IMG/VR virus record: IMGVR_UViG_2718218129_000002
Length of the DNA stretch: 52,782 nucleotides
Reading direction: 5' to 3' (one strand)
Origin: a virus
Lineage: Duplodnaviria; Heunggongvirae; Uroviricota; Caudoviricetes
How positions within the stretch are numbered: the stretch's first letter is position 1; each line of letters begins with the position of its first letter. Shown piece by piece: positions 23,296 through 41,059 of this stretch. The translations under genes were made by a program, and so were the position numbers. The notes under the pieces were generated by a model. It worked only from the letters and a program-made list of their open reading frames with translations, was not told where the DNA came from and did no database searches.

Positions 23296-24606
23296 TTAAA
23301 TCCGAAGTGATGTGACTCTTCCGGTCGGTTTGACAATAGGGAATTGCTTAACGATGAAATAACCTCCGGCATCATTCGGGTGATCATTGCCAGATTTTTT
23401 ATCAGGCTCCCCCTTATCATCCCAGACCTGTTGCTCCAGAGATTCGGCATATACCGGACAACGCTTCACATTAACTTTATAGCGACGCTCACCATTGGCA
23501 TTGCAGAACATTGCATTCATTGAGTTAACGCGATCTTTTACTGGCGGGTTCGAGCTGTTCACCACAACGTTAAAACCTGCCTGCTTAAGCTGGGCTATAT
23601 CCGTCGTACTTGCGTTACTTGATTTTCTGGAATCTCCGGAAGCATCTGGATAAATATAAATCTCCCTCACTTTCCGGTAATCATGCCCGTCATACAGCCA
23701 GAAGCGTTCTTTAATGAGGCGGATCATATCCGGCGTATCGTAGGCATTGATGATTTCAGTTACCGCACATGGAAGCCCCAAACGCAGCACATGGACGATT
23801 CCCGCCATCTTTCCAACGTTAAAATCCATCCCAATATAAATCGGCTCCCCTGGCTGCTCCACTTCTTCGCAATTATTCAGTTTCCGGTCAAACTGATGGT
23901 AAACAGTACCACTTGTCAGGTTAGTAAACTGTCCTCGAAGATAGGCTTTAATCAGCTCTGGAGGGTATGATTCAAGAAGCGAAGGAATGTAATCTGCTGG
24001 CAGGTTCTTTTCATTATCGAAAGTAGATGCCTGCACCAGACCATACAGTGAGGCCAGCTCTGTTTTTTCACGCACGGCTTTAACAAACTGCTCGTAGACA
24101 AATTTGAATCCTTCCGGCGTGGTTGTAACGTCAATACCGTTGCGAAGTCCATCAATCTTATAACGCATACGTGCAATTATCTTGCGCCACGCCGTTCTGG
24201 CTTTTTCCTTCGGCAAAATGTCCAGTTCATCCACCAACGCATTACCAATTTTGAAACCGACGATCGTTTGTGGCTTCTCCATCGATCTGCAGATAGTGGT
24301 TCCCCGATACTGGCGTCCGTAATAAAAGTGAACCTCTTTATTTCCCTCATTAATTTTTACGTTCAATCCCCAGTCAGCAGCAACTTCTTCCACTGTAGGG
24401 TAAAAAATATCGCGAATTTGGGGATACGTTGGCGCAAAATATCCCTGATTTATACCTGGATGCTCCCAAATCCCCTTGCATATGCCGCCACACCCAACCC
24501 ATGTTTTGCCCGAGCCAAAACCAGCAATATAGGCTTTAAATTTATGGGGCATTGAAAGAAATCGCGCCTGAGGCACATTAAGCGTCGGAGAGATCATCTT
24601 CATCAC
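23296..24606 (-). CDS. terminase large subunit
   Basis: 436 aa; Walker A GFGSGKT near the N-terminus; overlaps the TerS stop. Confidence 0.9.
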   Translation of the reverse strand: MMKMISPTLNVPQARFLSMPHKFKAYIAGFGSGKTWVGCGGICKGIWEHPGINQGYFAPTYPQIRDIFYPTVEEVAADWGLNVKINEGNKEVHFYYGRQYRGTTICRSMEKPQTIVGFKIGNALVDELDILPKEKARTAWRKIIARMRYKIDGLRNGIDVTTTPEGFKFVYEQFVKAVREKTELASLYGLVQASTFDNEKNLPADYIPSLLESYPPELIKAYLRGQFTNLTSGTVYHQFDRKLNNCEEVEQPGEPIYIGMDFNVGKMAGIVHVLRLGLPCAVTEIINAYDTPDMIRLIKERFWLYDGHDYRKVREIYIYPDASGDSRKSSNASTTDIAQLKQAGFNVVVNSSNPPVKDRVNSMNAMFCNANGERRYKVNVKRCPVYAESLEQQVWDDKGEPDKKSGNDHPNDAGGYFIVKQFPIVKPTGRVTSLRI

Positions 24607-25672
24607 TCCTTACTCTGGCATCAACCACATTAATATTGATCGCCACAGGCTGGGGATGTTCATTATCTTCCACCGTTTCGATCTCTTTGCGCAGCTTCTG
24701 GTTTTCCATTCTGCGCCGTTCAATTTCCAGTTCCTGTAGCCGTTTATCTGCACATAAAGCCCCGCCAGCAGAAAACAAACGCAACAATTCACGCCGGGCG
24801 GCAGCCTTATCCTCCAGCAGGATCTCAACGCCGAATTTTCCGAATTTTGCCCCTGCATATAATTGCCGCGCATCCCCATCAAGCAGAGTGGTATCAGCCA
24901 TATAAAGCTGTCCCGTTCCCTCACCGCAGCACTTCGGGCAGTCCGGATTGGGTATGGCGTTATCAACAAAGCCGAGGCCTCCATATTCCGGTTCGGGTTT
25001 GCCATCTCTGGAAGCCTGCGCCGCTGCCTTGTCGAATTCTGCTATATCGCGCCACTGGTAGAGATGATTCTCGCCCCAGCAATAACGGCAGTTAACACGG
25101 CGAAATTGTGCAAGCTGATTGGGGTCGGCTAGGACAATAGCCATCAACTGACTCACTAGTAAATCCAGGTCTGCGGTATAGCGTTTCTGGTACTGATTGC
25201 GGAAGTAGCTGATAGCGCGAAAAACCCTGGCATTTCTAAGCATACGACTGGCGTTGCTGTTAGCTGTCGCACCTTGCCCCTCATAACCGGCTAGTCGGTA
25301 CGCCTCTGTCGGCTTTTTACCCTGAGCAACAAGCATCGCAAACTTAGCCTGCTGGTCAGAAATGCCGAATTCATCGGGACAGAACGAAAATTCCTCCGCG
25401 TCGCCCTCATTCAGGCCCGCATCGAATACTGGCTTTTTTTCCTGAGATTTTTCGTTCCGCTTTTGTGCAGTCTGCGCAGATTTTTTCTGCGCACTTTTTT
25501 GCGCAGTTTTGCACATTTCTGTCTGCGCATTTTTCGGAGTTTTTTTGATGTAACGACGGGCTGTTGCGTAATTCAGTCCCCTTGCTTCACACCATGCCAC
25601 CGGAGATATACCGGAGCGGGTGTATTCAGCAATATACTCCTGCTGCAACGCCCCCCAGTCCGGTCTGCTCAT
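24578..25672 (-). CDS. terminase small subunit
   Basis: 364 aa; N-terminal HTH-like segment; directly upstream of TerL. Confidence 0.7.
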   Translation of the reverse strand: MSRPDWGALQQEYIAEYTRSGISPVAWCEARGLNYATARRYIKKTPKNAQTEMCKTAQKSAQKKSAQTAQKRNEKSQEKKPVFDAGLNEGDAEEFSFCPDEFGISDQQAKFAMLVAQGKKPTEAYRLAGYEGQGATANSNASRMLRNARVFRAISYFRNQYQKRYTADLDLLVSQLMAIVLADPNQLAQFRRVNCRYCWGENHLYQWRDIAEFDKAAAQASRDGKPEPEYGGLGFVDNAIPNPDCPKCCGEGTGQLYMADTTLLDGDARQLYAGAKFGKFGVEILLEDKAAARRELLRLFSAGGALCADKRLQELEIERRRMENQKLRKEIETVEDNEHPQPVAININVVDARVRSDEDDLSDA

Positions 25673-25675
25673 CAG

Positions 25676-25927
25676 TTAGTCCTGATTTTTATCCACCCTG
25701 AGTAGTTCGCGCAGAGCAAAGGCATCCCCTTTTCTGGCAAGCTTAAACAATGCCGCTCGTAACTCGGCTTCACCTTTCGCTCTGCCCTTACGGATGGCCG
25801 CATAAAAATCTGTCATTGCTTCCCGATTTTCTTTCAGTCGGTTCAGATCAACATCCAGAACGTCAGCGATTTGTTGTGCAGTCATCCGGCACGCTGCCAG
25901 AGACTCGACTTTCGAATACGGAATCAT
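25676..25927 (-). CDS. hypothetical small protein
   Basis: 83 aa ORF between the unknown enzyme and TerS; true start may be an internal Met. Confidence 0.4.
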   Translation of the reverse strand: MIPYSKVESLAACRMTAQQIADVLDVDLNRLKENREAMTDFYAAIRKGRAKGEAELRAALFKLARKGDAFALRELLRVDKNQD

Positions 25928-26816
25928 TTGTCACCCCCATTGATATGCAGGGTGTCTTCTTCCTGTATTTTTCGTGAAGGATTTTTACTGCAGCGTTGTT
26001 CCAGGTGACCTGATGGTGAATGCGTTTATGGCTGGCACCCATCAGTGAGATTTTTACGCACGACGGCGCATACATGACGGAGTAAAAACTTTTAACGTAG
26101 GTTCCGGAATCCAGATACAGCTCGGTCATTCCGCCGCTGTTTTTCTGCGTCTGTTTCTGCCCTAACTGGACAGCACCGATCGTCATAAACAATTCACCAC
26201 AGCGACCGAGATTCGTGTACGTATTCACATCCTCGTTAATGCGCCCCATGAATGAGAACGGTCGATCAACCGAACAGATAAAGCTGTTCATTGCCTTGCG
26301 TTTCACCCACGAAGCATGGCCGCCATTGTCACCAAGAAAATCCCCGCCCTGCGACATAGCGATGGAAAGAGCAGGTATTGATTCGTAGTACGCCAGCATT
26401 TCAGAAAGGATCGCATCCAGTTTCCTTATCGGAAAATAGGCCTGGTCATAGTTGCGATCCACCCGAAACTGGAACTCGTGATAATCATCATCGAGCTGAA
26501 TGAAGTATTTACACCCGACCAGTTTTGCCAGGTCGAAACAGGCATTACGGGCGTAAAAAATTGAGCGGCGGTCACAGAAATTATCGGCTTCGTCAAAACG
26601 ACTGGCGATATCGGCTTTGGAAAACACCAGCACCTGTTCACCAAATTCAGCCATGTACTGATTCCGTGTCTTATCTTCATCATCAACAACGATAAAAATT
26701 TTCCCGGTATAGCCAGCACGACGCAACGTCCGGTAAGTCAGAACTTTGTCCGGTCGCCCGTGAGTCAGAATAAAGGCGCAAAAATCATCACGCATATTCC
26801 TCCTCCTCACCACCAT
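25863..26816 (-). CDS. uncharacterised enzyme-like protein with acidic DxD-type motifs
   Basis: 317 aa; motifs VVDDEDK and QLDDDY; Rac ydaY is probably a remnant of this gene; function not resolved. Confidence 0.5.
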   Translation of the reverse strand: MVVRRRNMRDDFCAFILTHGRPDKVLTYRTLRRAGYTGKIFIVVDDEDKTRNQYMAEFGEQVLVFSKADIASRFDEADNFCDRRSIFYARNACFDLAKLVGCKYFIQLDDDYHEFQFRVDRNYDQAYFPIRKLDAILSEMLAYYESIPALSIAMSQGGDFLGDNGGHASWVKRKAMNSFICSVDRPFSFMGRINEDVNTYTNLGRCGELFMTIGAVQLGQKQTQKNSGGMTELYLDSGTYVKSFYSVMYAPSCVKISLMGASHKRIHHQVTWNNAAVKILHEKYRKKTPCISMGVTNDSVFESRVSGSVPDDCTTNR

Positions 26817-27579
26817 GCATGATCTCCACCATGCGCTGCGTCATCCGGACAAATCCATTTTCAATAGCCTGCTGATAATCAATGATCACCAGCGCCGACT
26901 CCTCGAAAAAACACTGAATTTCAGAGGGGGCGTGAGCGTAATAGTCCGCAATTCTGCTGAAATTAAACACCGTGTGACGTTCTGCCGCACACAGGAGGAA
27001 TTTCTCAATATCAGGCTCAAGGGACGCCGAACGTATCCGGCTGATCAGCTCCTGAGTTTTCGTATCGTCGTACAGTTCACTGATATCCGGTTTACCGCCC
27101 GACGGCTCATAAACAGGCGTATCAATTTTCGTCGTATACGGCTCCTCCTCATTTCCTGTACCGGGCAAAACATCCGTCAACAGTTCATCAATTTCTGTCG
27201 GGATGAAGCCTGTCAGGGAGACATCAAAATCAGCATTGATTAGGTCCGACAGCTCCATCCGCAACAGATCTTCATCCCAGCCAGCATTCATCGGCAGGCG
27301 ATTATCTGCCAGGCGGTACGCCTTTTTCTGCTCATCCGTCAGGCCAGACAGAACAATGACCGGAACAGAATCCATTTTGAGCATTTCAGCCGCCATAACA
27401 CGACCGTGACCCGCAATAATTTCGCCCTTTTCGTCAATCAGCACCGGATTAGTCCAGCCGAATTGCTTAATACTTTCTACCAGTTGTGCCACCTGCTCAG
27501 GGCTGTGCGTCCTGGCGTTGTGCGCATACGGTGACAATTCTTGTAATGGGCGATAGACTATCTTTAATTTCTCGCTCAT
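26788..27579 (-). CDS. ynaK: ParB-like nuclease domain protein
   Basis: 263 aa; N-terminal ParB/sulfiredoxin-like motif IIAGHGR; acidic C-terminus. Confidence 0.7.
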   Translation of the reverse strand: MSEKLKIVYRPLQELSPYAHNARTHSPEQVAQLVESIKQFGWTNPVLIDEKGEIIAGHGRVMAAEMLKMDSVPVIVLSGLTDEQKKAYRLADNRLPMNAGWDEDLLRMELSDLINADFDVSLTGFIPTEIDELLTDVLPGTGNEEEPYTTKIDTPVYEPSGGKPDISELYDDTKTQELISRIRSASLEPDIEKFLLCAAERHTVFNFSRIADYYAHAPSEIQCFFEESALVIIDYQQAIENGFVRMTQRMVEIMHGGEEEEYA

Positions 27580-27716
27580 ACAGCCTTGCTTTATGAATAA
27601 AACGCACCCCAGCAGCCAGTGCTACTGGGGACGGAGGGGTTGCTGGTAAAGTTAGGTATTGGATCAATGAGTGAGTCAACATAATATTAAACTCACAATT
27701 ATAAATCAGCCATATA

Positions 27717-29192
27717 TTAGGAGCGCCAAAAAAAACCTGAAAACAATATAATAACAGGATAAATTTCAAGGCGACCAAGAATCATAGCTATGCACATTAA
27801 ACATTTTGCAATGTCATTAAGCACTCCGAATGACGATGCAGTAGCCCCAAAACCTAATCCCATATTATTAATACATGCAGCCACTGTTGCAAATGATGTA
27901 AGAAAATCATATCCCATACCATTTAACACCAGTATAAAAAACACCGTGAAGAGAGTATAAAGAAAAAAGAAACTCCATACAGACCTCATTACACGATCTG
28001 TAACTATCTTCCCTCCTACATTTACACTCAACAACGCTCTGGGATGAGAAAGCTGATTTATCTCGTGTTTGCTTTGTTTGAAAAGTATAAGAAATCGAAG
28101 TGACTTAATTCCACCACAAGTTGAACCTATACATCCCCCAAAGAAACTTGACAACAGCAAAAACACTATCGTGTGCGTGGGCCAACTTGCATAATCCTGC
28201 GTAGCTAAACCATTATCAGTGAGCATGGAGCTGGCAAGAAAAAACGAATGAATAAAACTTCCATGCAAGTCATACATACCTATATGCCAGACCTGGAAAG
28301 AGGTAACAATGATCACCCCTAAGGCTATTAACAGAAAGAAACGAAGTTCAATATCTCTGATTAAAGGTTTTATCGTTTTCCTGCTAATAACAATATACCA
28401 AAGAGTGAAGTTGAAAGCCGATAGCAGGGAAAAAGAACCAGCCACCAGCTCAACCAAATAGTTATTAAAATATCCGATACTCTCGCTATGAGTTGAGAAA
28501 CCACCAAGCGAAACTGTGGAAATCCCGTGACAAATAGCATCAAACAAAGGCATTCCTGCAAGTCTATAACAGACAATACAAGCAATACCTAATAAAGAAT
28601 AAGTTATCCACAGTGTCCGTGACGTATCGGCCAGGCGGGGAGTGAGTTTGTCATCCTTAAATGGCCCCGGCATTTCTGACTGATAAAGCTTTGCACCACC
28701 AATACCCAATAATGGCAATACAGCAACCGCCAGAACAATAACTCCTAAACCACCTATAAAATTTAACTGTGACCGATAGTACAAATATGCCCGAGGTAAT
28801 GAACTAACATCATCAATTACAGTTGCTCCTGTTGTTGTTATTCCAGAAACCCCTTCAAACAGAGCATCAATGAACGTTAAATTAAGTTCTGAGTCAATCC
28901 ATAAAGGGAATGCACTAATAACAGAAAACAAAATCCAAAACATTACAATTATAATAAACCCATCACGGGTACGTAATTGAATGCCAGATTTCTTAGTTGT
29001 ATACCACGCTCCGCCACCAATGCAAAAAAATATAACGAAAGTTATAAAGAAAACGAACAGGCTTTTTTCTTTATAAAACAATGCTACAACCATTGGTGGC
29101 AACATTGAAAGACTATAGAGCCAAACCAGGAACCCACACATATGAGTAACAACTCTTACATGAGATGTATTCATATCTAAATATTCTTTCAA
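27717..29192 (-). CDS. trkG: TrkH/TrkG-family potassium uptake membrane protein
   Basis: 491 aa polytopic membrane protein; visibly AT-rich gene with AT-rich flanks. Confidence 0.9.
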   Translation of the reverse strand: MKEYLDMNTSHVRVVTHMCGFLVWLYSLSMLPPMVVALFYKEKSLFVFFITFVIFFCIGGGAWYTTKKSGIQLRTRDGFIIIVMFWILFSVISAFPLWIDSELNLTFIDALFEGVSGITTTGATVIDDVSSLPRAYLYYRSQLNFIGGLGVIVLAVAVLPLLGIGGAKLYQSEMPGPFKDDKLTPRLADTSRTLWITYSLLGIACIVCYRLAGMPLFDAICHGISTVSLGGFSTHSESIGYFNNYLVELVAGSFSLLSAFNFTLWYIVISRKTIKPLIRDIELRFFLLIALGVIIVTSFQVWHIGMYDLHGSFIHSFFLASSMLTDNGLATQDYASWPTHTIVFLLLSSFFGGCIGSTCGGIKSLRFLILFKQSKHEINQLSHPRALLSVNVGGKIVTDRVMRSVWSFFFLYTLFTVFFILVLNGMGYDFLTSFATVAACINNMGLGFGATASSFGVLNDIAKCLMCIAMILGRLEIYPVIILFSGFFWRS

Positions 29193-32754: not shown

Positions 32755-33297
32755 TCAAGCCATTTTCTCAGCAAATGATTCACGCATGGGAATATATAGG
32801 GCATACTCAGCAACAGCTAACCAATTAGCAATCCGTTTTTCGCATGTGCTAAAACACCACTCTGGGTGTGCATCATTTAGCAATTCAGCCATTTTGCGCT
32901 TAGTCATCCCCCGCCCTTCATAGCGTTGCCGGAGAATGCAAATCAATCCTGGATGCTCTGCCAGCACCTCACTTATGACTCGATCAATACATAACGCCTC
33001 TGCATCAGTACAATGCGCCAGCCAGCTCTTTTGCTTGCCGTTGATCATCTCTCGCAAAAACGCTTCCAGCTCAGCTTTCTCTATTCCCGCTTTTTTCATT
33101 CTGCGCAGGGCTTCATTAATGGCTGTTTTCGTCAGTTTTTTGGATGCCAACAACTGATTGAACATATTCCCTGACCTGCCACCGCCAATATACGACCAGC
33201 GCCCCCACATACGTAGTTTTCCCTGAATCCAGACACTTTCCAGCGTGGTGAGGCGAAGGTGTTCTCCGCTTTTTCCTGTATTCGTTGGGTAAATCAT
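32755..33297 (-). CDS. late gene regulator, Q-like antiterminator candidate
   Basis: 180 aa; last nin-region gene before the terminator and lysis cassette; HTH-like segment near the C-terminus. Confidence 0.5.
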   Translation of the reverse strand: MIYPTNTGKSGEHLRLTTLESVWIQGKLRMWGRWSYIGGGRSGNMFNQLLASKKLTKTAINEALRRMKKAGIEKAELEAFLREMINGKQKSWLAHCTDAEALCIDRVISEVLAEHPGLICILRQRYEGRGMTKRKMAELLNDAHPEWCFSTCEKRIANWLAVAEYALYIPMRESFAEKMA

Positions 33298-35298: not shown

Positions 35299-36003
35299 TT
35301 ATTCTTGCTTTTTGGGAGGTCTTGGATATTTCGCAGGTAATTTTTCTGTAATCTTAAATATATCCTCATTTTTTAGTATTGTTCGCATTACAAAATTTTC
35401 TATAATTACCAAAAGCGATTTAAATTCAGTTTCGTTCGGTGCCCATGTCCTGTGTGCAGCTGAGTTGCCAGCTTCGGTTACAATTTTAAGTTGGCTCCTT
35501 TCTGTTTCCCCAATAAAACCTTCCTCTTTAAGAATGTCAACCTTCTGGCCTAATGTATATCCTGGATGAATATTTAGAACCTCAACTGTTCTGTCAAAAA
35601 TAGTTCTAAGTCCAATCGCCGCTAAAATGAATGATTTATTTTGAAATGCGATGTACATTTCGTTCATTATTACATACAGCTGACGATCTTTGTTTAATAT
35701 CTCACCAAACCAAGTTGGTCTAATCTCTTCTTGCTCTTGAGTGGGATATGTTGATATATGATAGTTATATACCATACAATCATAGCCTGACTCATCTCTT
35801 TCAATGTCGTAATCTTCACTGTGACGGGATTTAATATATGTAAATATTCCGTCGCACCCCATACACTCTAATAATTTGTATTCACTTTCAGCCCAAAAAT
35901 AGTTGCCCCCATCATCCTCACTCCATTCTCTTTTTTTATGGCCTATTATGTGGCAATTTTTTTCACCTTTACAATATGGACAAGGAGCTTTAATTTTTTC
36001 CAT
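35299..36003 (-). CDS. zinc-ribbon protein with HEPN-like (DUF4145-like) C-terminal domain, candidate defence protein
   Basis: 234 aa; CPYC...CMGC zinc ribbon; C-terminal helical domain with GNSAAHRTW; AT-rich gene; the domain family is uncertain. Confidence 0.55.
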   Translation of the reverse strand: MEKIKAPCPYCKGEKNCHIIGHKKREWSEDDGGNYFWAESEYKLLECMGCDGIFTYIKSRHSEDYDIERDESGYDCMVYNYHISTYPTQEQEEIRPTWFGEILNKDRQLYVIMNEMYIAFQNKSFILAAIGLRTIFDRTVEVLNIHPGYTLGQKVDILKEEGFIGETERSQLKIVTEAGNSAAHRTWAPNETEFKSLLVIIENFVMRTILKNEDIFKITEKLPAKYPRPPKKQE

Positions 36004-36717
36004 GGTAATTATTCTGCCATTTAAATTAAAATTGATATAACATATATGCTATATGATTTATAAATGATGAACTTACGGCTCACTTTACTACAATAATTTT
36101 CATATGAGTAGTGATATGCCTCTCATTTTCTTTGTCGTTGATTGATCTGCTCTACATTGATTAACACCGAATGGGAGTAACTCCCGCTTTTGGCAGAGTG
36201 CGAACAAGCTGACCAAACCTTAGGTCCGCAGTGAGCGAGGAGCGAGCATTGGCCTTATAAGGCATCGGAGCTGTTCTCCGGAGATCCTCTGAAAGCGAAC
36301 TGTTCGGTTAAGCAGGACGCTTACAAGGCAAGCTTAGCGTGTTGTCTTGTGATGGGTTGCTTAAACCTTTTGTGAAGGTATTTTTCTATCGAAAGATAAT
36401 TAACTGAGGTTGTTATGTCATACATTCGCGTCGAGAAAGATGACCTTCAGCATTAATCAGATTATTTCTGTGAAGAGGATATGGTTACAGTCTGTAGAAC
36501 TTAGGGGATTGTAGTCCAGTGTGGTTGTTAATGAGATGGCAGAAGTAGCTGCTGTTCGTACTGCGTTGCGAAATCTCATTAGAGAAAATCGGGTTGATCC
36601 TCTAACTGATTGAATATACATTCCTATTGCTCACGAGTTGGAATGAGCTGTGACTTTTTAGCTTTAAACTTAACTTTAAGACAATTTTATGATCACGTTA
36701 GGGTGTAAGAAGGATAT

Positions 36718-37944
36718 ATGAGCGGAGAAGTATTTCATAAAAGATTGTTTCCCGTTGGCCAGGGTGGATTTAGTTTAGGCGGACTGAGGGGAAGGGATGG
36801 TAGTTTGCTTTACAGTTATGTGTATGACTGCGGAAGTGACCAATTAAATGCGTTGCGTAGGGAGATGGATGTGGCTAAATCTCTCTTTAATATTGATGAG
36901 AAATATATTGATGTGGTATACATCTCTCATTTGGATTCAGACCATATAAATGGATTTGACCATTTATGTCAGCTTGTAGATAACAAAATACGCAAGGTTG
37001 TATTACCATACCTAGATATCCATGATAGCTATTACTTAATTGCATCGGAGCTATGCTCTAATTCTACGTCAGGTCTTTTTATGGAATTTCTCATTGATCC
37101 TGTCAAATGGATAAAATCAAGGTTGCCTGAGGCAGATATATCTTTGCTTTACCCCAGTGATATTGATGATAATTTTGACCCTCCTATATTTAATAGTGAA
37201 AACATTAAGGGTAGCGCTGTAAGCTTACCAATGAAAATATCTGACTCCAAAGGAGATGTTGAATGTAACCGTTGGTTGGTTAAAAGGATTGGGGAAAACA
37301 AAACTGATACACTAATGTCATTTATTTCTTGGATACCGCCCCGTTCACGTAAGAAAATTGAAATTTTCAGTCAGCAGTTAATAGAAAATGGTTTTACTGA
37401 GTTAAGTAAGAAAAAAATGCTTAAAATATTAACTAGCACGGGGGAAAGAAAGAAATTACGCGAGTGTTATTTAAAACTTGCTGGCGATCATAATGTAATA
37501 TCAATCAATCTCTTGATTATTAATAATCAAGAAGCTGAGATGAAAATTGTTAATGAGCCTTCTCGTGAGTGGTTTAGTTTTAGAAATAGTCGGGTTGAGC
37601 GACATTTTCTCTTTGATAGAGATAAAGGAATTAGATCTGTTTTATTAACAGGTGACTCAAAGCTTAATACATCATTGTATTATAATAAATGGGCTGAATT
37701 CTATTCAAAAGTGATTAAAACGGTAAGGGTGATGACATTACCTCATCATGGTTCGGAATTAAATTTCAATCAAAAAATAATTGCGGATTTTGATAATGTT
37801 TTGTTTATAGCTCAGTCGGATGGTCATTCACATGGACACCCATCACAATCAGTAATCGATGCTATAAATTCAAGTCATGGACATAGCGTTACTTTAGTTG
37901 ACAATAATGCTAAAAATTGGGTTGATATAAAATATATATTTTAA
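36718..37944 (+). CDS. metallo-beta-lactamase-fold protein
   Basis: 408 aa; ISHLDSDHINGF resembles the MBL HxHxDH motif; C-terminal LPHHGS as in ComEC-type MBL domains; AT-rich. Confidence 0.65.
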   Translation: MSGEVFHKRLFPVGQGGFSLGGLRGRDGSLLYSYVYDCGSDQLNALRREMDVAKSLFNIDEKYIDVVYISHLDSDHINGFDHLCQLVDNKIRKVVLPYLDIHDSYYLIASELCSNSTSGLFMEFLIDPVKWIKSRLPEADISLLYPSDIDDNFDPPIFNSENIKGSAVSLPMKISDSKGDVECNRWLVKRIGENKTDTLMSFISWIPPRSRKKIEIFSQQLIENGFTELSKKKMLKILTSTGERKKLRECYLKLAGDHNVISINLLIINNQEAEMKIVNEPSREWFSFRNSRVERHFLFDRDKGIRSVLLTGDSKLNTSLYYNKWAEFYSKVIKTVRVMTLPHHGSELNFNQKIIADFDNVLFIAQSDGHSHGHPSQSVIDAINSSHGHSVTLVDNNAKNWVDIKYIF

Positions 37945-38069
37945 ACATTAGTTGTATTAATAGCATTTAAATAAATTAAGTTTGTTGGTATGTTAAAAGT
38001 TTTTGCTAGATAACCAGGTCTTTTTTGACCGATGATACAGTCTTTGTTCCACGGTGACGTGTTCACACT

Positions 38070-38100
38070 CAAATCTCCTGCAATGTGGGAGATTTGAGTA
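38070..38100. terminator. bidirectional hairpin between convergent genes
   Basis: CTCAAATCTCC-tgcaatgtg-GGAGATTTGAG, an 11-bp perfect stem. Confidence 0.4.
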
Positions 38101-38184
38101 TGGTTGTCCCTGATGTGCGATAAGCGGACCTAACATTATTATGTTTTGAATAATAAGAGACAGTCAGTTGGCTGTAAGTCTGAC

Positions 38185-39078
38185 TTAGTTATCCAAAACA
38201 GCTTTTCTTTGTATTATTGTTCTAATAAATGCTGCTGATATATGCAACACGAATTCAGCATCGTATTCCAAGACAGAAGAAACCTTGTTGCTACCATGTC
38301 TTACTGCTGGCTCTGCATTTGTATAAGCGTAAAATTTCTCTATCACCGTTAAAAGCATAGGTGAGATAGTGTTTTCTTTTCTCATCAGTTTTAATACATC
38401 GCCCAAGGTTGAGGCTGAAGGATAATAAGTCCGACACATGCTTTCTATTGCACTTATTGATTCTTTTATGGAATTTTCTGGATCCTTATGCGCACCTAAT
38501 GCAAAAGCCCGGGCTTTCACATAGTGCCTCCTTGCAGGTTCAAACTGGTCTTGCAATAAGTTGTTAGTTTCATCGATTTTTTGTTCTAATTCATTTGGTA
38601 GTGGTGTTTCTAACCTACCAGCAGAATTCATTTTCCAGTCAATATTTCGAGATGCGAATAACTCGTTCAATTTCTGACGATATGATGTAAAAGTAATGTC
38701 TTCTAATGCCTTCTTACCCCAAGTATGGCCTCTTTCTACATCTCTTTTTCTTAATAGATCTCCGATAATCTCAACAGCATCATAAAATTGAAACCAACGC
38801 ATATGTTGCAAACGCGCTTTCAAAGCATCATAGCAGTACCATGAATCGAAATCCTCATGATCTGTTTCTTGACCATTCTCTGCGCAAAGTCGCTCGATCA
38901 AAGCCTTAATACCCAACGGCTTGTTCTCATCATTCGTAATGCGGCTATCACCATCAATGTACAAAAAATTATCGAGGACAGTTACAAAAAATAAAGAGCG
39001 AAGCCACTCTGGAGCATCTTCCCGTATCGGCTTTTTATTATACTCAGGATCAAAACCATGTCTGTACGAGAACTTCAT
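38185..39078 (-). CDS. hypothetical protein, candidate defence-associated
   Basis: 297 aa from MKFSYRHGFDPEYNKK... with GGGAG Shine-Dalgarno; AT-rich; no motif recognised with confidence. Confidence 0.55.
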   Translation of the reverse strand: MKFSYRHGFDPEYNKKPIREDAPEWLRSLFFVTVLDNFLYIDGDSRITNDENKPLGIKALIERLCAENGQETDHEDFDSWYCYDALKARLQHMRWFQFYDAVEIIGDLLRKRDVERGHTWGKKALEDITFTSYRQKLNELFASRNIDWKMNSAGRLETPLPNELEQKIDETNNLLQDQFEPARRHYVKARAFALGAHKDPENSIKESISAIESMCRTYYPSASTLGDVLKLMRKENTISPMLLTVIEKFYAYTNAEPAVRHGSNKVSSVLEYDAEFVLHISAAFIRTIIQRKAVLDN

Positions 39079-39488
39079 CCCACATCTCCCATTCAACTGT
39101 ATGAATATTAGGTAATTATACAACCAACACAAATCCCTTTGCGAATACAAAAAAATCAAAAAATCACAACAAATTTAAGAACTGATCGCTTATTTCTCTA
39201 TGGATGTCCGCTTCTGGCACGAAGCGGACAAGTTACCGTAGCTGAAGGTCACTAATACTGGGGGCAGGTCAGTTCGCGTTTGTTCTCATAACGGAGTAAG
39301 ACGCTAATGGTATTAAGGTGTATTAATGATCAATGTAGATCAACGATTATTGGCGTTTAACGCTCAGATGAGAACGTTCACCGATTCTGCACGAACAAAT
39401 TCAGAATGGGGGGATTTGATATCCCCCTGGTAGATGCCTTGGTTAATGTTTATAGGTCAATTGAACTCAGAGCATCATTCTTGCCGCA

Positions 39489-40850
39489 TTAGAGATGGTC
39501 AAAAATAGACCCTTTGCGTGGAATAAGGATCTTCTCATAAAGCTTTGTTGCATAGTCATCAGTCATCCCTGAAACATAGTCGCAAATGACTCGCATACCA
39601 GCCTTCTCGTCCAAGCTAGTCTGCCGCTCGTAAATTTCCCTCGTTGATGCCGGTAGAAACCGACACGGATCGTTAGCCAGCACACCGAAAAGCTCAACAA
39701 TCAACTTTTGTCCCTTGAATTCAAGCTGCTGTACATTTTCATGCTTAATTACTTTATTTTTGACCAGTTTGAAAATTTTCAACCGTAGTGCTTCGACCGC
39801 TTCCGGAAGGACCGCATTATATTTGAGCATGCCACATTCGAATGCTGGATTCTTTGTAATAAGCTCAACGCTTGTAATCATCAGGTGAACCAGCATCCCG
39901 ATGCACTCTTTTCTCTTGTAACTTTCACCAAAAAGGCTATCCGCGACAGATTCACATGTTGCGGAAAATGTTTCTCCATGGCAGTTAGTAAATAGGGTTT
40001 CATATTCACTGAAATGCTCCATCCACATTTCTCGTGTCACCATTCCGAGAGAAATAGCATCCTCCAAATCGTGCAGCGAATACGAAATTTCATCGGCAAG
40101 ATCCATGATGGTTGTATCGAGAGCTTTATAAGAAGCTTTTTTATGATCGGATTTAGTTTGACCATCTTCAACGGAAGTAAAAAGCCTCCGATCCTGTTCA
40201 GTAAATGGTGAAAGAGCAAATTCTACAACATCGCATTCTGAATCTAGATAGCATTTTGGAGGTTTAAAATCAGATGACTTAAAGAGCCAGTTCGGCGATC
40301 CGATAGTGGCCGGGATTCTGTCTTTTGTAACCACTAGATCCGAGTATTTAACCGGATATTTCAGTATGCCTAGCAGAAGTCTGCGTGTAGGATCGAGTCC
40401 GTGTTCAACGGTATACTTATCTAGTTTCGAGAGAATGCGAAGTGTCTGACCGTTTCCTTCAAAACCACCGTAATCCTGCATACAGTAGTTAAGAGCTACC
40501 TCACCGCCGTGACCAAATGGAGGATGTCCAATATCATGTGCGAGACATACTGCCTGCATAAGATCGTTATCTGGTAAAAATTGCTCTTGCTCTTTACCTT
40601 TATATTTTATTTTCAGCTTAGCAAGAAGACCTGAACCGATTTGTGCGACTTCCATAGAATGAGTCAGTCGTGTGCGGTAGAAATCACTTTCACCCAGACC
40701 AAGAACCTGTGTTTTGGATTGCAATCGTCTGAAAGCAGACGAGTGAATCAGTCGAGAAAGGTCGTGCTGAGCTTCAGATCGAATCTCCTCCACACGATGA
40801 CTATTGGTGCCTCGTCTCTTATCCCAGACGTTTATTTCACTCCGAGTCAT
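39489..40850 (-). CDS. dGTP triphosphohydrolase (HD domain, Dgt family), likely anti-phage dGTPase
   Basis: RTRLTHSMEVAQIG and HDIGHPPFGHGGE HD-domain motifs; start set at MTRSEINVW by GAGGAA Shine-Dalgarno; about 453 aa. Confidence 0.8.
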   Translation of the reverse strand: MTRSEINVWDKRRGTNSHRVEEIRSEAQHDLSRLIHSSAFRRLQSKTQVLGLGESDFYRTRLTHSMEVAQIGSGLLAKLKIKYKGKEQEQFLPDNDLMQAVCLAHDIGHPPFGHGGEVALNYCMQDYGGFEGNGQTLRILSKLDKYTVEHGLDPTRRLLLGILKYPVKYSDLVVTKDRIPATIGSPNWLFKSSDFKPPKCYLDSECDVVEFALSPFTEQDRRLFTSVEDGQTKSDHKKASYKALDTTIMDLADEISYSLHDLEDAISLGMVTREMWMEHFSEYETLFTNCHGETFSATCESVADSLFGESYKRKECIGMLVHLMITSVELITKNPAFECGMLKYNAVLPEAVEALRLKIFKLVKNKVIKHENVQQLEFKGQKLIVELFGVLANDPCRFLPASTREIYERQTSLDEKAGMRVICDYVSGMTDDYATKLYEKILIPRKGSIFDHL

Positions 40851-41059
40851 ATTATTCCTCATTTTTACTTTGTACACTGCGGCATTCTAACGTAACTAAA
40901 TTATCAAAATAACCTATTTATTTCTGACCTAATCTTCAATAATCAATGTTGTGTGAACTTAGTTAGGCCCGCCCCTGGCACAAAACAGACAACCACGCTA
41001 GCCGTATCCTGTGCCATGAAACTGTCAATTCACATATGAATTAATGGTCTTTAATCTCG

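Follow-up and report, generated by a model that had tools for sequence, protein, structure and literature searches.

A conserved adaptor/glycosyltransferase gene pair beside the terminase genes of a Rac-like prophage, with a proposed role in DNA glycosylation

Enzymes that transfer sugars onto DNA-borne hydroxyls include the T2/T6 beta-glucosyl-HMC-alpha-glucosyltransferase (HMC, hydroxymethylcytosine), the trypanosome JGT and phage 5-hydroxymethylcytosine (5hmC) glycosyltransferases (PMC13216743; bioRxiv 10.1101/2023.12.21.572611). The motif R...DDD...ED has been described for JGT and for the phage DNA-glycosylating enzymes of the glycosyltransferase (GT) fold GT-A (bioRxiv 10.1101/2023.12.21.572611). 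Solitary members of the TAGT family were reported in 288 of 753 GT-encoding phage genomes, their function being undefined (PMC13216743), and ~65% of phage GT contigs have no known base-hydroxymethylating partner (bioRxiv 10.1101/2023.12.21.572611). That phage glycosyltransferases occur near ParB-like and terminase genes has already been published in general terms (bioRxiv 10.1101/2023.12.21.572611). Here we describe a module of two overlapping genes, encoding a ynaK-like ParB-type adaptor and a TAGT-family glycosyltransferase, in a 52,782-nt stretch of viral DNA (IMG/VR record IMGVR_UViG_2718218129_000002, hereafter the window), which is a Rac-like lambdoid prophage of E. coli.

ParB-like proteins activate phage thymine dioxygenases on double-stranded DNA (O'Toole et al., PNAS 2026; PMC13229309), and the dioxygenase is predicted to sit between the N- and C-terminal domains of ParB (PMC13229309). 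Prophages also carry fusions of ParB_N to DNA methyltransferases (Kaljevic et al. 2025; PMC12704722), and the T4 alpha-glucosyltransferase binds the gp45 sliding clamp and so acts on newly replicated DNA (PMC13216743). What is new in the present analysis is the obligate pairing of TAGT with a C-terminal adaptor domain (C-domain), the exchange of ParB_N for a clamp-binding-like motif, and the terminase context without a hydroxymethylase. In the literature searched, no paper combining TAGT with ParB was found, nor a description of the C-domain adaptor, its strict TAGT pairing or the exchange (an earlier mention in Iyer et al. 2013 is possible); the literature on ynaK and on the archaeal virus HHTV-2 yielded nothing on function or DNA modification.

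The initial annotation of the window, made from its letters alone, had described two open reading frames (ORFs) just upstream of the terminase genes, one for a ParB-like nuclease domain protein and one for an unknown enzyme with acidic motifs. Both ORFs lie where it placed them:

26788..27579, minus strand: ynaK-like adaptor gene, intact, 263 aa (PF02195; phrog_620, E 8.5e-91; AlphaFold model; 63-sequence alignment)
25863..26816, minus strand: TAGT-family GT-A glycosyltransferase gene, 317-aa ORF (PF20691, phrog_842)
26484..26492, minus strand: DDD (D109-D111), DxD metal/nucleotide-sugar motif of the GT-A fold (alignment of 56 homologues)

The motifs it had picked out are also present, namely IIAGHGR at aa 54-60 and the acidic tail GGEEEEYA in the 263-aa protein, and VVDDEDK at aa 43-49 and QLDDDY at aa 107-112 in the 317-aa protein. 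The conservation of D48, D109-D111, G57 and R60 among homologues shows that these motifs did not arise by chance. Its observations were confirmed, and its interpretation was supported in part.

Both sequence and fold place the enzyme called unknown in the TAGT family. It matches Pfam TAGT ('TET-associated glycosyltransferase', PF20691) over aa 15-229 with 121 bits against a cut-off of 27.5 (E 8.4e-35), and phrog_842 over the whole profile (E 1.2e-103). Fold analysis, which the initial annotation had proposed as a check, gave a GT-A scaffold with a DxD motif and an R...DDD...ED active-site pattern, with glycogenin and SunS among the fold matches. Across 56 homologues, down to 38% identity, D109-D111 are nearly invariant, and the invariant residues include T27, D48, Y54, R90, G158, K174, M176, N194, D196, R265, H267 and H268. 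The conserved NED motif corresponds to N194-E-D196, and the conservation of DDD and NED fits the pattern of the phage DNA GT-A enzymes. A sequence search against PDB chains gave no match, and tblastn matches at E<=1e-5 did not extend to the T-even enzymes.

Compared with the TAGT family as known from the T2/T6 enzyme, JGT, the phage 5hmC GT-A enzymes and animal GREB1, the transferase is alike in Pfam/PHROG membership, GT-A fold and active-site motif, and in being phage-borne, with extra paralogues and sugar-tailoring genes in its relatives. It differs in that this phage has no source of 5hmC or 5-hydroxymethyluracil (5hmU), whether TET/JBP or a dCMP/dUMP hydroxymethylase, and no first-step alpha/beta-GT, and in that its clade is obligately paired with the C-domain adaptor. 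We infer that DNA is the substrate of the transferase.

A first scan of viral contigs with a single protein gave near-identical E. coli prophages only, and an alignment-based genome scan was therefore used. With the transferase alignment as query, 80 loci were found in Bacteroidota, Firmicutes, Proteobacteria, Planctomycetota, Patescibacteria and other phyla, with 46-59% identity outside Enterobacterales, and their ORFs were searched with the adaptor split into N and C halves. In 76 of the 80, the gene directly upstream of the transferase gene, in the same orientation, encodes the C half. Three of the four misses (L135, L153, L160) are contig-edge truncations, and the fourth (L154) has a ParB_N fragment only upstream. 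The distance from partner stop to transferase start had a median of -14 nt, the two genes overlapping in 74 of 76 pairs. For the reciprocal test, viral contigs were retrieved by the C-domain alone (at least 587 exist) and 43 non-E. coli loci were examined; the transferase lay downstream in all 43, adjacent in 38 and with one gene between in 5. One locus of the genome scan (L148) carries two such pairs in tandem. Isolated phages of Lactobacillus, Nocardia and Vibrio also have the pair, and genes 21 and 22 of HHTV-2 are annotated as such a pair. In this TAGT clade, the transferase gene thus forms an obligate pair with an overlapping gene for the C-domain. What is conserved beside the transferase is not the ParB domain but the C-terminal half of the ParB-like protein, which the initial annotation had overlooked. 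Family members in viruses of Archaea, Firmicutes, Bacteroidota and Proteobacteria still have 43-59% identity, which argues for an acceptor common to all hosts, such as DNA.

Two architectures of the C-domain were observed among 993 database relatives: ParB_N plus C-domain (~237-290 aa) or the C-domain standing alone (129-153 aa). The stand-alone proteins nearly all start with MKQxNLFG, MIQKTLFG, xFDLFG or similar. Bacterial beta-clamp-binding motifs have a consensus of the QL[SD]LF or QxxLF type, which the stand-alone N-termini resemble. The pattern Qx(1-2)[LMI]x?F occurred within the first 16 aa in 22 of 43 distinct stand-alone N-termini and in none of 61 fused partners (Fisher p 5e-11), against 0.9% of 2069 control ORFs from the same loci. 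A DnaN-like gene directly follows the transferase in L106, L113, L148 and L150, all with a stand-alone partner, so that DnaN adjoins TAGT in 4 of 8 stand-alone loci versus 0 of 67 loci with a long ParB_N-type partner (p 6e-5). One TAGT-adjoining clamp matches phrog_947, 'DNA polymerase processivity factor' (E 1e-30). Two further stand-alone loci, in which PolA or RecA adjoin, have weak DnaN-like similarity beside the adaptor (L162, Pfam E 0.0047; L253, 'faint'), and in L164 the ParB_N domain and the C-domain are encoded by separate adjacent genes. Together, the architectures, the motif and the DnaN data indicate that the C-domain plus the transferase make up the constant core, while the variable part would link this core to a sliding clamp on DNA.

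The stand-alone adaptors with clamp-binding-like motifs beside DnaN are analogous to the T4 alpha-glucosyltransferase/gp45 system. The T4 enzyme differs in having a GT-B fold, in binding the clamp directly and in acting on 5hmC made before replication, whereas here any clamp contact would go via a separate adaptor.

Profiles, alignment and the AlphaFold model divide the adaptor of the window into four parts:

27175..27579, minus strand: ParB N-domain, aa 1-135 (profile alignment to M. xanthus ParB, MxParB, 7bnk; Foldseek)
27103..27141, minus strand: linker motif PYTTKIDTPVYEP, aa 147-159, extended (two homologue alignments)
26845..27087, minus strand: C-domain, aa 165-245 (partner in TAGT loci; part of phrog_620)
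26791..26844, minus strand: acidic C-terminal tail, aa 246-263, ...HGGEEEEYA (homologues' ends acidic too)

The ParB/sulfiredoxin-type N-terminal domain proposed by the initial annotation is real. It scores 28.9 bits against PF02195 (ParB/Srx; cut-off 26.3), and the top Foldseek matches are nucleotide-bound ParB, Noc, PadC and KorB, with CTP- and CDP-bound structures among them (ParB with cytidine diphosphate, ParB-CDP, E 1.7e-6); sulfiredoxin (Srx) and SerK are weaker than the ParB-type matches. G57 and R60 of the GxxR motif (G57-H-G-R60) are invariant or nearly so in 63 homologues. With the roles of the residues taken from PMC13229309, the profile alignment to 7bnk showed that the nucleoside triphosphate (NTP)-binding residues R54, S68, G73, R95 and N127 of MxParB are kept as R23, S36, G41, R60 and N93, while the hydrolysis residues Q52 and E93 are replaced by N21 and H58. 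The N-domain probably binds NTP yet hydrolyses it poorly. The conserved residues are the NTP-binding ones, and no sequence evidence of a nuclease was found in this domain.

In N-domain fold and in the equivalents of the five NTP-binding residues, the adaptor is like the partition clamps ParB, Noc and KorB. It differs from them in lacking the Q52/E93 equivalents, a helix-turn-helix (HTH) DNA-binding domain and a canonical C-terminal dimerisation domain (no match outside the N-domain in Pfam, NCBIfam or PDB), and its TIGR00180 score of 38.5 is under the cut-off of 58.45. No ParA gene is present in the prophage, and near the module there are no parS-like repeats, only a short repeat cluster inside terS. 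Because HTH, parS, ParA and the canonical C-terminal domain are all missing, the adaptor is not a partition ParB. The closest ParB relative is the ParB part of the ParB_N-DNA methyltransferase fusions (phrog_498), which the adaptor ParB_N matches with E 1e-50. Both are prophage-borne and serve DNA modification, as proposed for the present pair. In the fusions ParB is joined to the enzyme itself, whereas in the present pair it is joined to an adaptor domain, next to a separate and probably translationally coupled enzyme.

The linker motif PYTTKIDTPVYEP contains the invariant residues Y148, P155 and Y157. Residues 137-154 have a predicted local distance difference test (pLDDT) score of <50 in the monomer model, so the linker motif is predicted to be disordered, and it is a candidate docking or acceptor peptide. 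The C-domain belongs to a previously unnamed region of ~120 aa. Its four-helix core is confidently predicted at aa 165-227 (AAxRH, IADYYAH) and is followed by an invariant SALVIIDxxxAIxNGF element. No Pfam, NCBIfam or PDB match of its own was found for the C-domain, the sole profile match being the C-terminal part of phrog_620, and the adaptor profile had no PDB match past position 94 of 259. Foldseek with the full adaptor model is uninformative on the C-domain, as the N-domain dominates the matches. The isoelectric point (pI) is 8.6 for the transferase and 4.5 for the adaptor, which has a net charge of -25; with an acidic adaptor and a basic enzyme, it would have to be the enzyme that makes any contact with DNA.

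The pair, with its overlapping genes and with an N-domain, a linker and a helical C-domain in the adaptor model, is arranged like the ParB-dependent thymine dioxygenases (5mYOX176/ParB176). In both systems a phage gene for a DNA-modifying enzyme (a putative one here) lies next to a ParB-like gene. The ParB-like partner combines an N-domain of the nucleotide-binding type, its NTP-binding residues conserved, with a C-terminal domain and lacks a DNA-binding domain, and terminases are frequent neighbours. The strict co-occurrence of transferase and adaptor (76 of 80, 43 of 43) lends indirect support to a dependence of the enzyme on its partner. The differences are that the enzyme here is a glycosyltransferase, not a dioxygenase, and that the C-domain here was found only with TAGT (43 of 43), the comparison with ParB176 being by description only.

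On the minus strand of the window the order is lysis genes, trkG, the 263-aa ORF, the 317-aa ORF, an 83-aa ORF, the small and large terminase subunit genes (TerS, TerL) and portal. The features around the pair are:

32755-33297: Q-antiterminator-like gene, upstream of the module
27717-29192, minus strand: trkG, directly 5' of the adaptor/transferase pair
27607..27630, minus strand: strong terminator-like hairpin, 10-bp GC-rich stem then T-run, between trkG and the module
25676..25927, minus strand: 83-aa ORF (69 aa in RefSeq), TerS-like (phrog_309, E 8e-23; RefSeq annotation)
24578-25672, minus strand: TerS, downstream of the module (Pfam and PHROG matches)
23296-24606, minus strand: TerL, downstream of the module (Pfam and PHROG matches)

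The true start of the transferase gene is likely M8, the ATG at 26795, which gives a protein of 310 aa. This ATG is preceded by GAGGAGGAGGAA, it is the start used in RefSeq, and the N-termini of the homologues begin there too. It overlaps the adaptor stop by 8 nt as ATGCGTGA, and this start/stop overlap suggests translational coupling of adaptor and transferase. The hairpin lies ~85 nt past the trkG stop and 27 nt ahead of the start of the ParB-like gene, and trkG behaves, on its layout, as a self-contained moron. With a hairpin before the module and a Q-like gene upstream, the module is likely read by an antiterminated late transcript.

The 83-aa ORF overlaps the 3' end of the transferase gene and so links the module to TerS/TerL. 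It is similar to an internal piece only of the terminase-small-subunit family phrog_309 and may be a DNA-binding module that has split off from TerS. Within terS, towards its 5' end at 25448-25538, there are 4-5 copies of TTTTTCTGCGCA-like direct repeats of 12-21 nt, 12-34 nt apart, which encode an AQK-rich low-complexity stretch; they could be a pac-type recognition array. Elsewhere in the prophage, a defence-like gene island is located at 35299-40877, between the replication and nin/Q regions. It encodes a DUF4145 protein (35299-36003, minus strand), a metallo-beta-lactamase-fold protein (36718-37944, plus strand), an AbiJ_NTD4 protein (38185-39159, minus strand) and an HD + HD_assoc dGTPase-like protein (39489-40877, minus strand). 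The same position in the SE11 prophage holds other cargo: IS3, a TPR protein and a DUF262 protein.

In the related loci the pair usually lies immediately upstream of terminases, which come from several unrelated families. The large terminases found within three genes downstream of it represent at least five Pfam families (Terminase_6N, Terminase_3, GpA, T7-type and TerL_ATPase), and assorted small terminases accompany them. Upstream are replication and recombination genes, or Q and lysis genes in lambdoids, and some pairs are located in replication modules, at a distance from any terminase. Recurrent accessories in the relatives are extra TAGT paralogues (up to three in tandem), UDP-galactopyranose mutase, epimerases, nucleotidyltransferases and ~320-aa radical S-adenosylmethionine (SAM) proteins. 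Where one gene separates adaptor and TAGT, it encodes a fusion of a histidine phosphatase with a cytidylyl/adenylyl-transferase-like domain (in the four inserts that were read, of five, and in L164), which suggests that those phages make their own CDP- or ADP-activated donor. The fusions and neighbours are:

P0248, P0249, P0286: TAGT fused to a class-I SAM methyltransferase
P0285: TAGT fused to a sulfotransferase
P0267, P0268: TAGT-TAGT fusions
P0269, P0301, P0316: P-loop kinase-like domain fused to TAGT
L164:2603-3556; L222:2942-3895; L228:7326-8321; L234:5676-6662; L239:1419-2387: phosphatase-cytidylyltransferase inserts
L137, L141, L142, L145, L156 (downstream of TAGT) and L167:80-1042 (upstream): radical SAM neighbours

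This set of accessories and fusions is the make-up of the glycan-building DNA hypermodification clusters described by Pyle et al. (bioRxiv 10.1101/2023.12.21.572611), minus the step that creates the acceptor. A Walker A motif (GxxxxGKS) is present in the kinase-like domain N-terminal to TAGT, for which no informative family match was found. The radical SAM protein (~311-329 aa, CxxxCxxC near the N-terminus) recurs beside the pair in phages of Firmicutes and Bacteroidota, and in L167 it accompanies a P-loop kinase-like + TAGT fusion. Its similarity to radical SAM proteins is generic, with no specific subfamily matched, and it could make or tailor an acceptor. On a ~104-kb phage contig (L162:8001-10982), a stand-alone adaptor is followed by three tandem TAGT paralogues, right after PolA and a weakly DnaN-like 378-aa protein; the three tandem TAGTs imply a multi-sugar product.

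We lean slightly towards the view that the module is a clamp-tethered, adaptor-dependent, late-expressed two-component DNA glycosyltransferase. As a TAGT-family member, the enzyme would be a basic GT-A nucleotide-sugar transferase that depends on Mn/Mg. The C-domain of the acidic adaptor would bind it, possibly via the two elements that are unstructured in the monomer model, and the adaptor would hold it on DNA through a tether to a sliding clamp that encircles the DNA. For Rac-like and most other phages, this tether would be the fused ParB CTPase-type N-domain, acting as an NTP-gated clamp module; in Rac, the adaptor would dimerise into a clamp that its ParB N-domains close when NTP is bound, while the enzyme makes the contact with DNA. 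In other phages it would be the host or phage beta clamp, reached via the N-terminal motif of the adaptor, often beside a phage DnaN gene. Expressed late, ahead of the terminase, the enzyme would scan and glycosylate replicated phage DNA before or during packaging, and the sugar may protect the DNA from host nucleases or mark it for packaging. ParB proteins have reportedly been suggested to direct modification machinery to DNA during packaging (Iyer et al. in 2013, as relayed by a citing paper), and late glycosylation would agree with that suggestion in the form in which it is relayed.

Several results weigh against a DNA glycosyltransferase. An acceptor on DNA is not evident, as canonical DNA has no hydroxyl except at its ends. 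Neither TET/JBP, a thymidylate-synthase-like hydroxymethylase nor a C5-methylase is encoded in the window, neither the window nor the SE11 prophage has TET/JBP, a hydroxymethylase or a first-step alpha/beta-GT, and no hydroxymethylating enzyme was among the 25 most frequent neighbour families in ~118 related loci (none more than about once per sample). With no TET/JBP present, the transferase lacks the genomic context that gave the TAGT family its name, although homology does not depend on that context. The adaptor is strongly acidic, and a DNA-binding domain cannot be recognised in it. The linker motif and the SALVIID element are of low confidence in the monomer model, so the roles given to them are guesses. 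In the thymine dioxygenase system, mutation of the ParB NTP-binding residues did not abolish activation (PMC13229309), so the clamp mechanism is unproven even there. The Vibrio phage pv27 (191 kb; L165:6459-6878) has a stand-alone adaptor with neither the clamp-binding-like motif nor ParB_N, and a third way of tethering, or none, may therefore exist; the pv27 adaptor gene is located between primase/exonuclease and helicase genes. Finally, the TAGT-domain protein GREB1, a member of the family, O-GlcNAcylates a protein and not DNA (PMC7968844).

Protein glycosylation is the main alternative, although we consider it unlikely. The transferase would modify its own partner at Tyr148, Thr149 or Tyr157 of YTxKIxxPxYEP, in the manner of glycogenin, or else a different protein associated with DNA or packaging (for example TerS, the portal or a clamp client), with DNA as a platform only. 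The GREB1 precedent, the missing DNA acceptor and the glycogenin and SunS fold matches fit this explanation, as does an invariant Tyr/Thr-rich motif in a segment predicted to be disordered, and a partner conserved as universally as the enzyme could be a universal acceptor. The characterised viral or kinetoplastid members of the family act on DNA, however; ParB or beta-clamp tethering and placement in replication or packaging regions are hard to reconcile with self-glycosylation, and the tandem transferases and sugar-tailoring fusions look like the hypermodification clusters of Pyle et al. There is a smaller chance that the target is a free nucleotide, a deoxynucleoside triphosphate precursor or a host immune signalling nucleotide, with the ParB-type domain as an NTP-sensing regulator. 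ParB/Srx folds do include nucleotide-dependent enzymes and kinases (Srx, SerK), the NTP-binding residues are conserved, P-loop kinase-like fusions exist and nucleotidyltransferase genes are nearby. Such a target leaves unexplained why ParB_N is replaced by a beta-clamp-binding-like motif with DnaN adjoining and why the place beside terminases is constant, and phage GT-A enzymes of the TAGT family act at the level of the DNA polymer (bioRxiv 10.1101/2023.12.21.572611).

The initial annotation had suggested that such pairs are DNA-modification modules or accessory nucleases for packaging, and it is the former that the context favours. Cutting or processing of DNA for the terminase by the ParB-like domain, with the second protein an unrelated cofactor, is very improbable. 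The module does lie directly upstream of TerS/TerL, and some ParB_N proteins are annotated as nucleases, for example the pNOB8-like ParB 5k5d ('ParB domain protein nuclease'). The adaptor matches 5k5d with E 1.3e-4 versus 5e-10 for MxParB, and in Foldseek roughly tenfold more weakly than ParB-CDP (2.6e-5 versus 1.7e-6); it matches CTP-binding clamps best, and conservation falls on the residues that bind NTP. The ParB domain can also be replaced by a clamp-binding motif while the C-domain and transferase stay constant, and the pair's occurrence away from terminases is a further argument against it. The accessory nuclease was rejected, no supporting feature having been found. Modification of a cell-envelope glycan (seroconversion or superinfection exclusion, as with TarP or Gtr) is just as remote and was rejected on host range and the clamp tether: hosts from Archaea, Firmicutes, Bacteroidota and Proteobacteria share no envelope acceptor although the family is so well conserved among them, and the enzyme is obligately paired with a ParB- or clamp-tethered adaptor. 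The module also lies in the late/replication region behind a terminator, not near the attachment site, and neither protein matched membrane-protein families, no dedicated transmembrane prediction having been made. Action on incoming T-even phage DNA was rejected on the late-operon position and the presence of the pair in hosts without such phages.

Of 5426 complete E. coli genomes, 866 (~16%) cover 80% or more of the 2.1-kb module region. The initial annotation had named ynaK and ydaY as the remnants in K-12. This holds for ynaK, an 87-aa N-terminal fragment of the ParB-like gene, and the transferase gene is gone; ydaY, in contrast, is a tail-module gene in the intact SE11 prophage, and a deletion in K-12 put it beside ynaK. 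In E. coli NZ_CP159152.1 (4088941-4092241) an otherwise identical module is broken by the IS5-like element ISKpn26, and Shigella flexneri (L083) has two ORFs in place of one intact ParB-like gene; the module is decaying in some lineages, as in K-12. Its loss from K-12 may be the reason that it has gone unstudied, and work on K-12 could not have uncovered it.

The module resides in inducible lambdoid prophages, and induced phages carrying it have already been sequenced, which makes it a tractable system. The wider claim is that Rac-like coliphages and hundreds of unrelated bacterial and archaeal phages glycosylate their DNA without a hydroxymethylpyrimidine, the GT-A enzyme being held by its adaptor on one of two interchangeable sliding clamps, the ParB-type NTP clamp or the beta clamp; this we regard as tentative, possible rather than probable. 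If it is true, the sugar would sit directly on a canonical base, a phosphate or a DNA end, which would be new DNA chemistry, and one of the best-known phage groups would carry a new modification. The tethering of the same adaptor domain to ParB_N or to a beta-clamp-binding-like motif beside a DnaN gene points to clamp tethering as a common logic, which, if true, would be the first mechanistic rationale for the ParB-like proteins in phage DNA-modification clusters.

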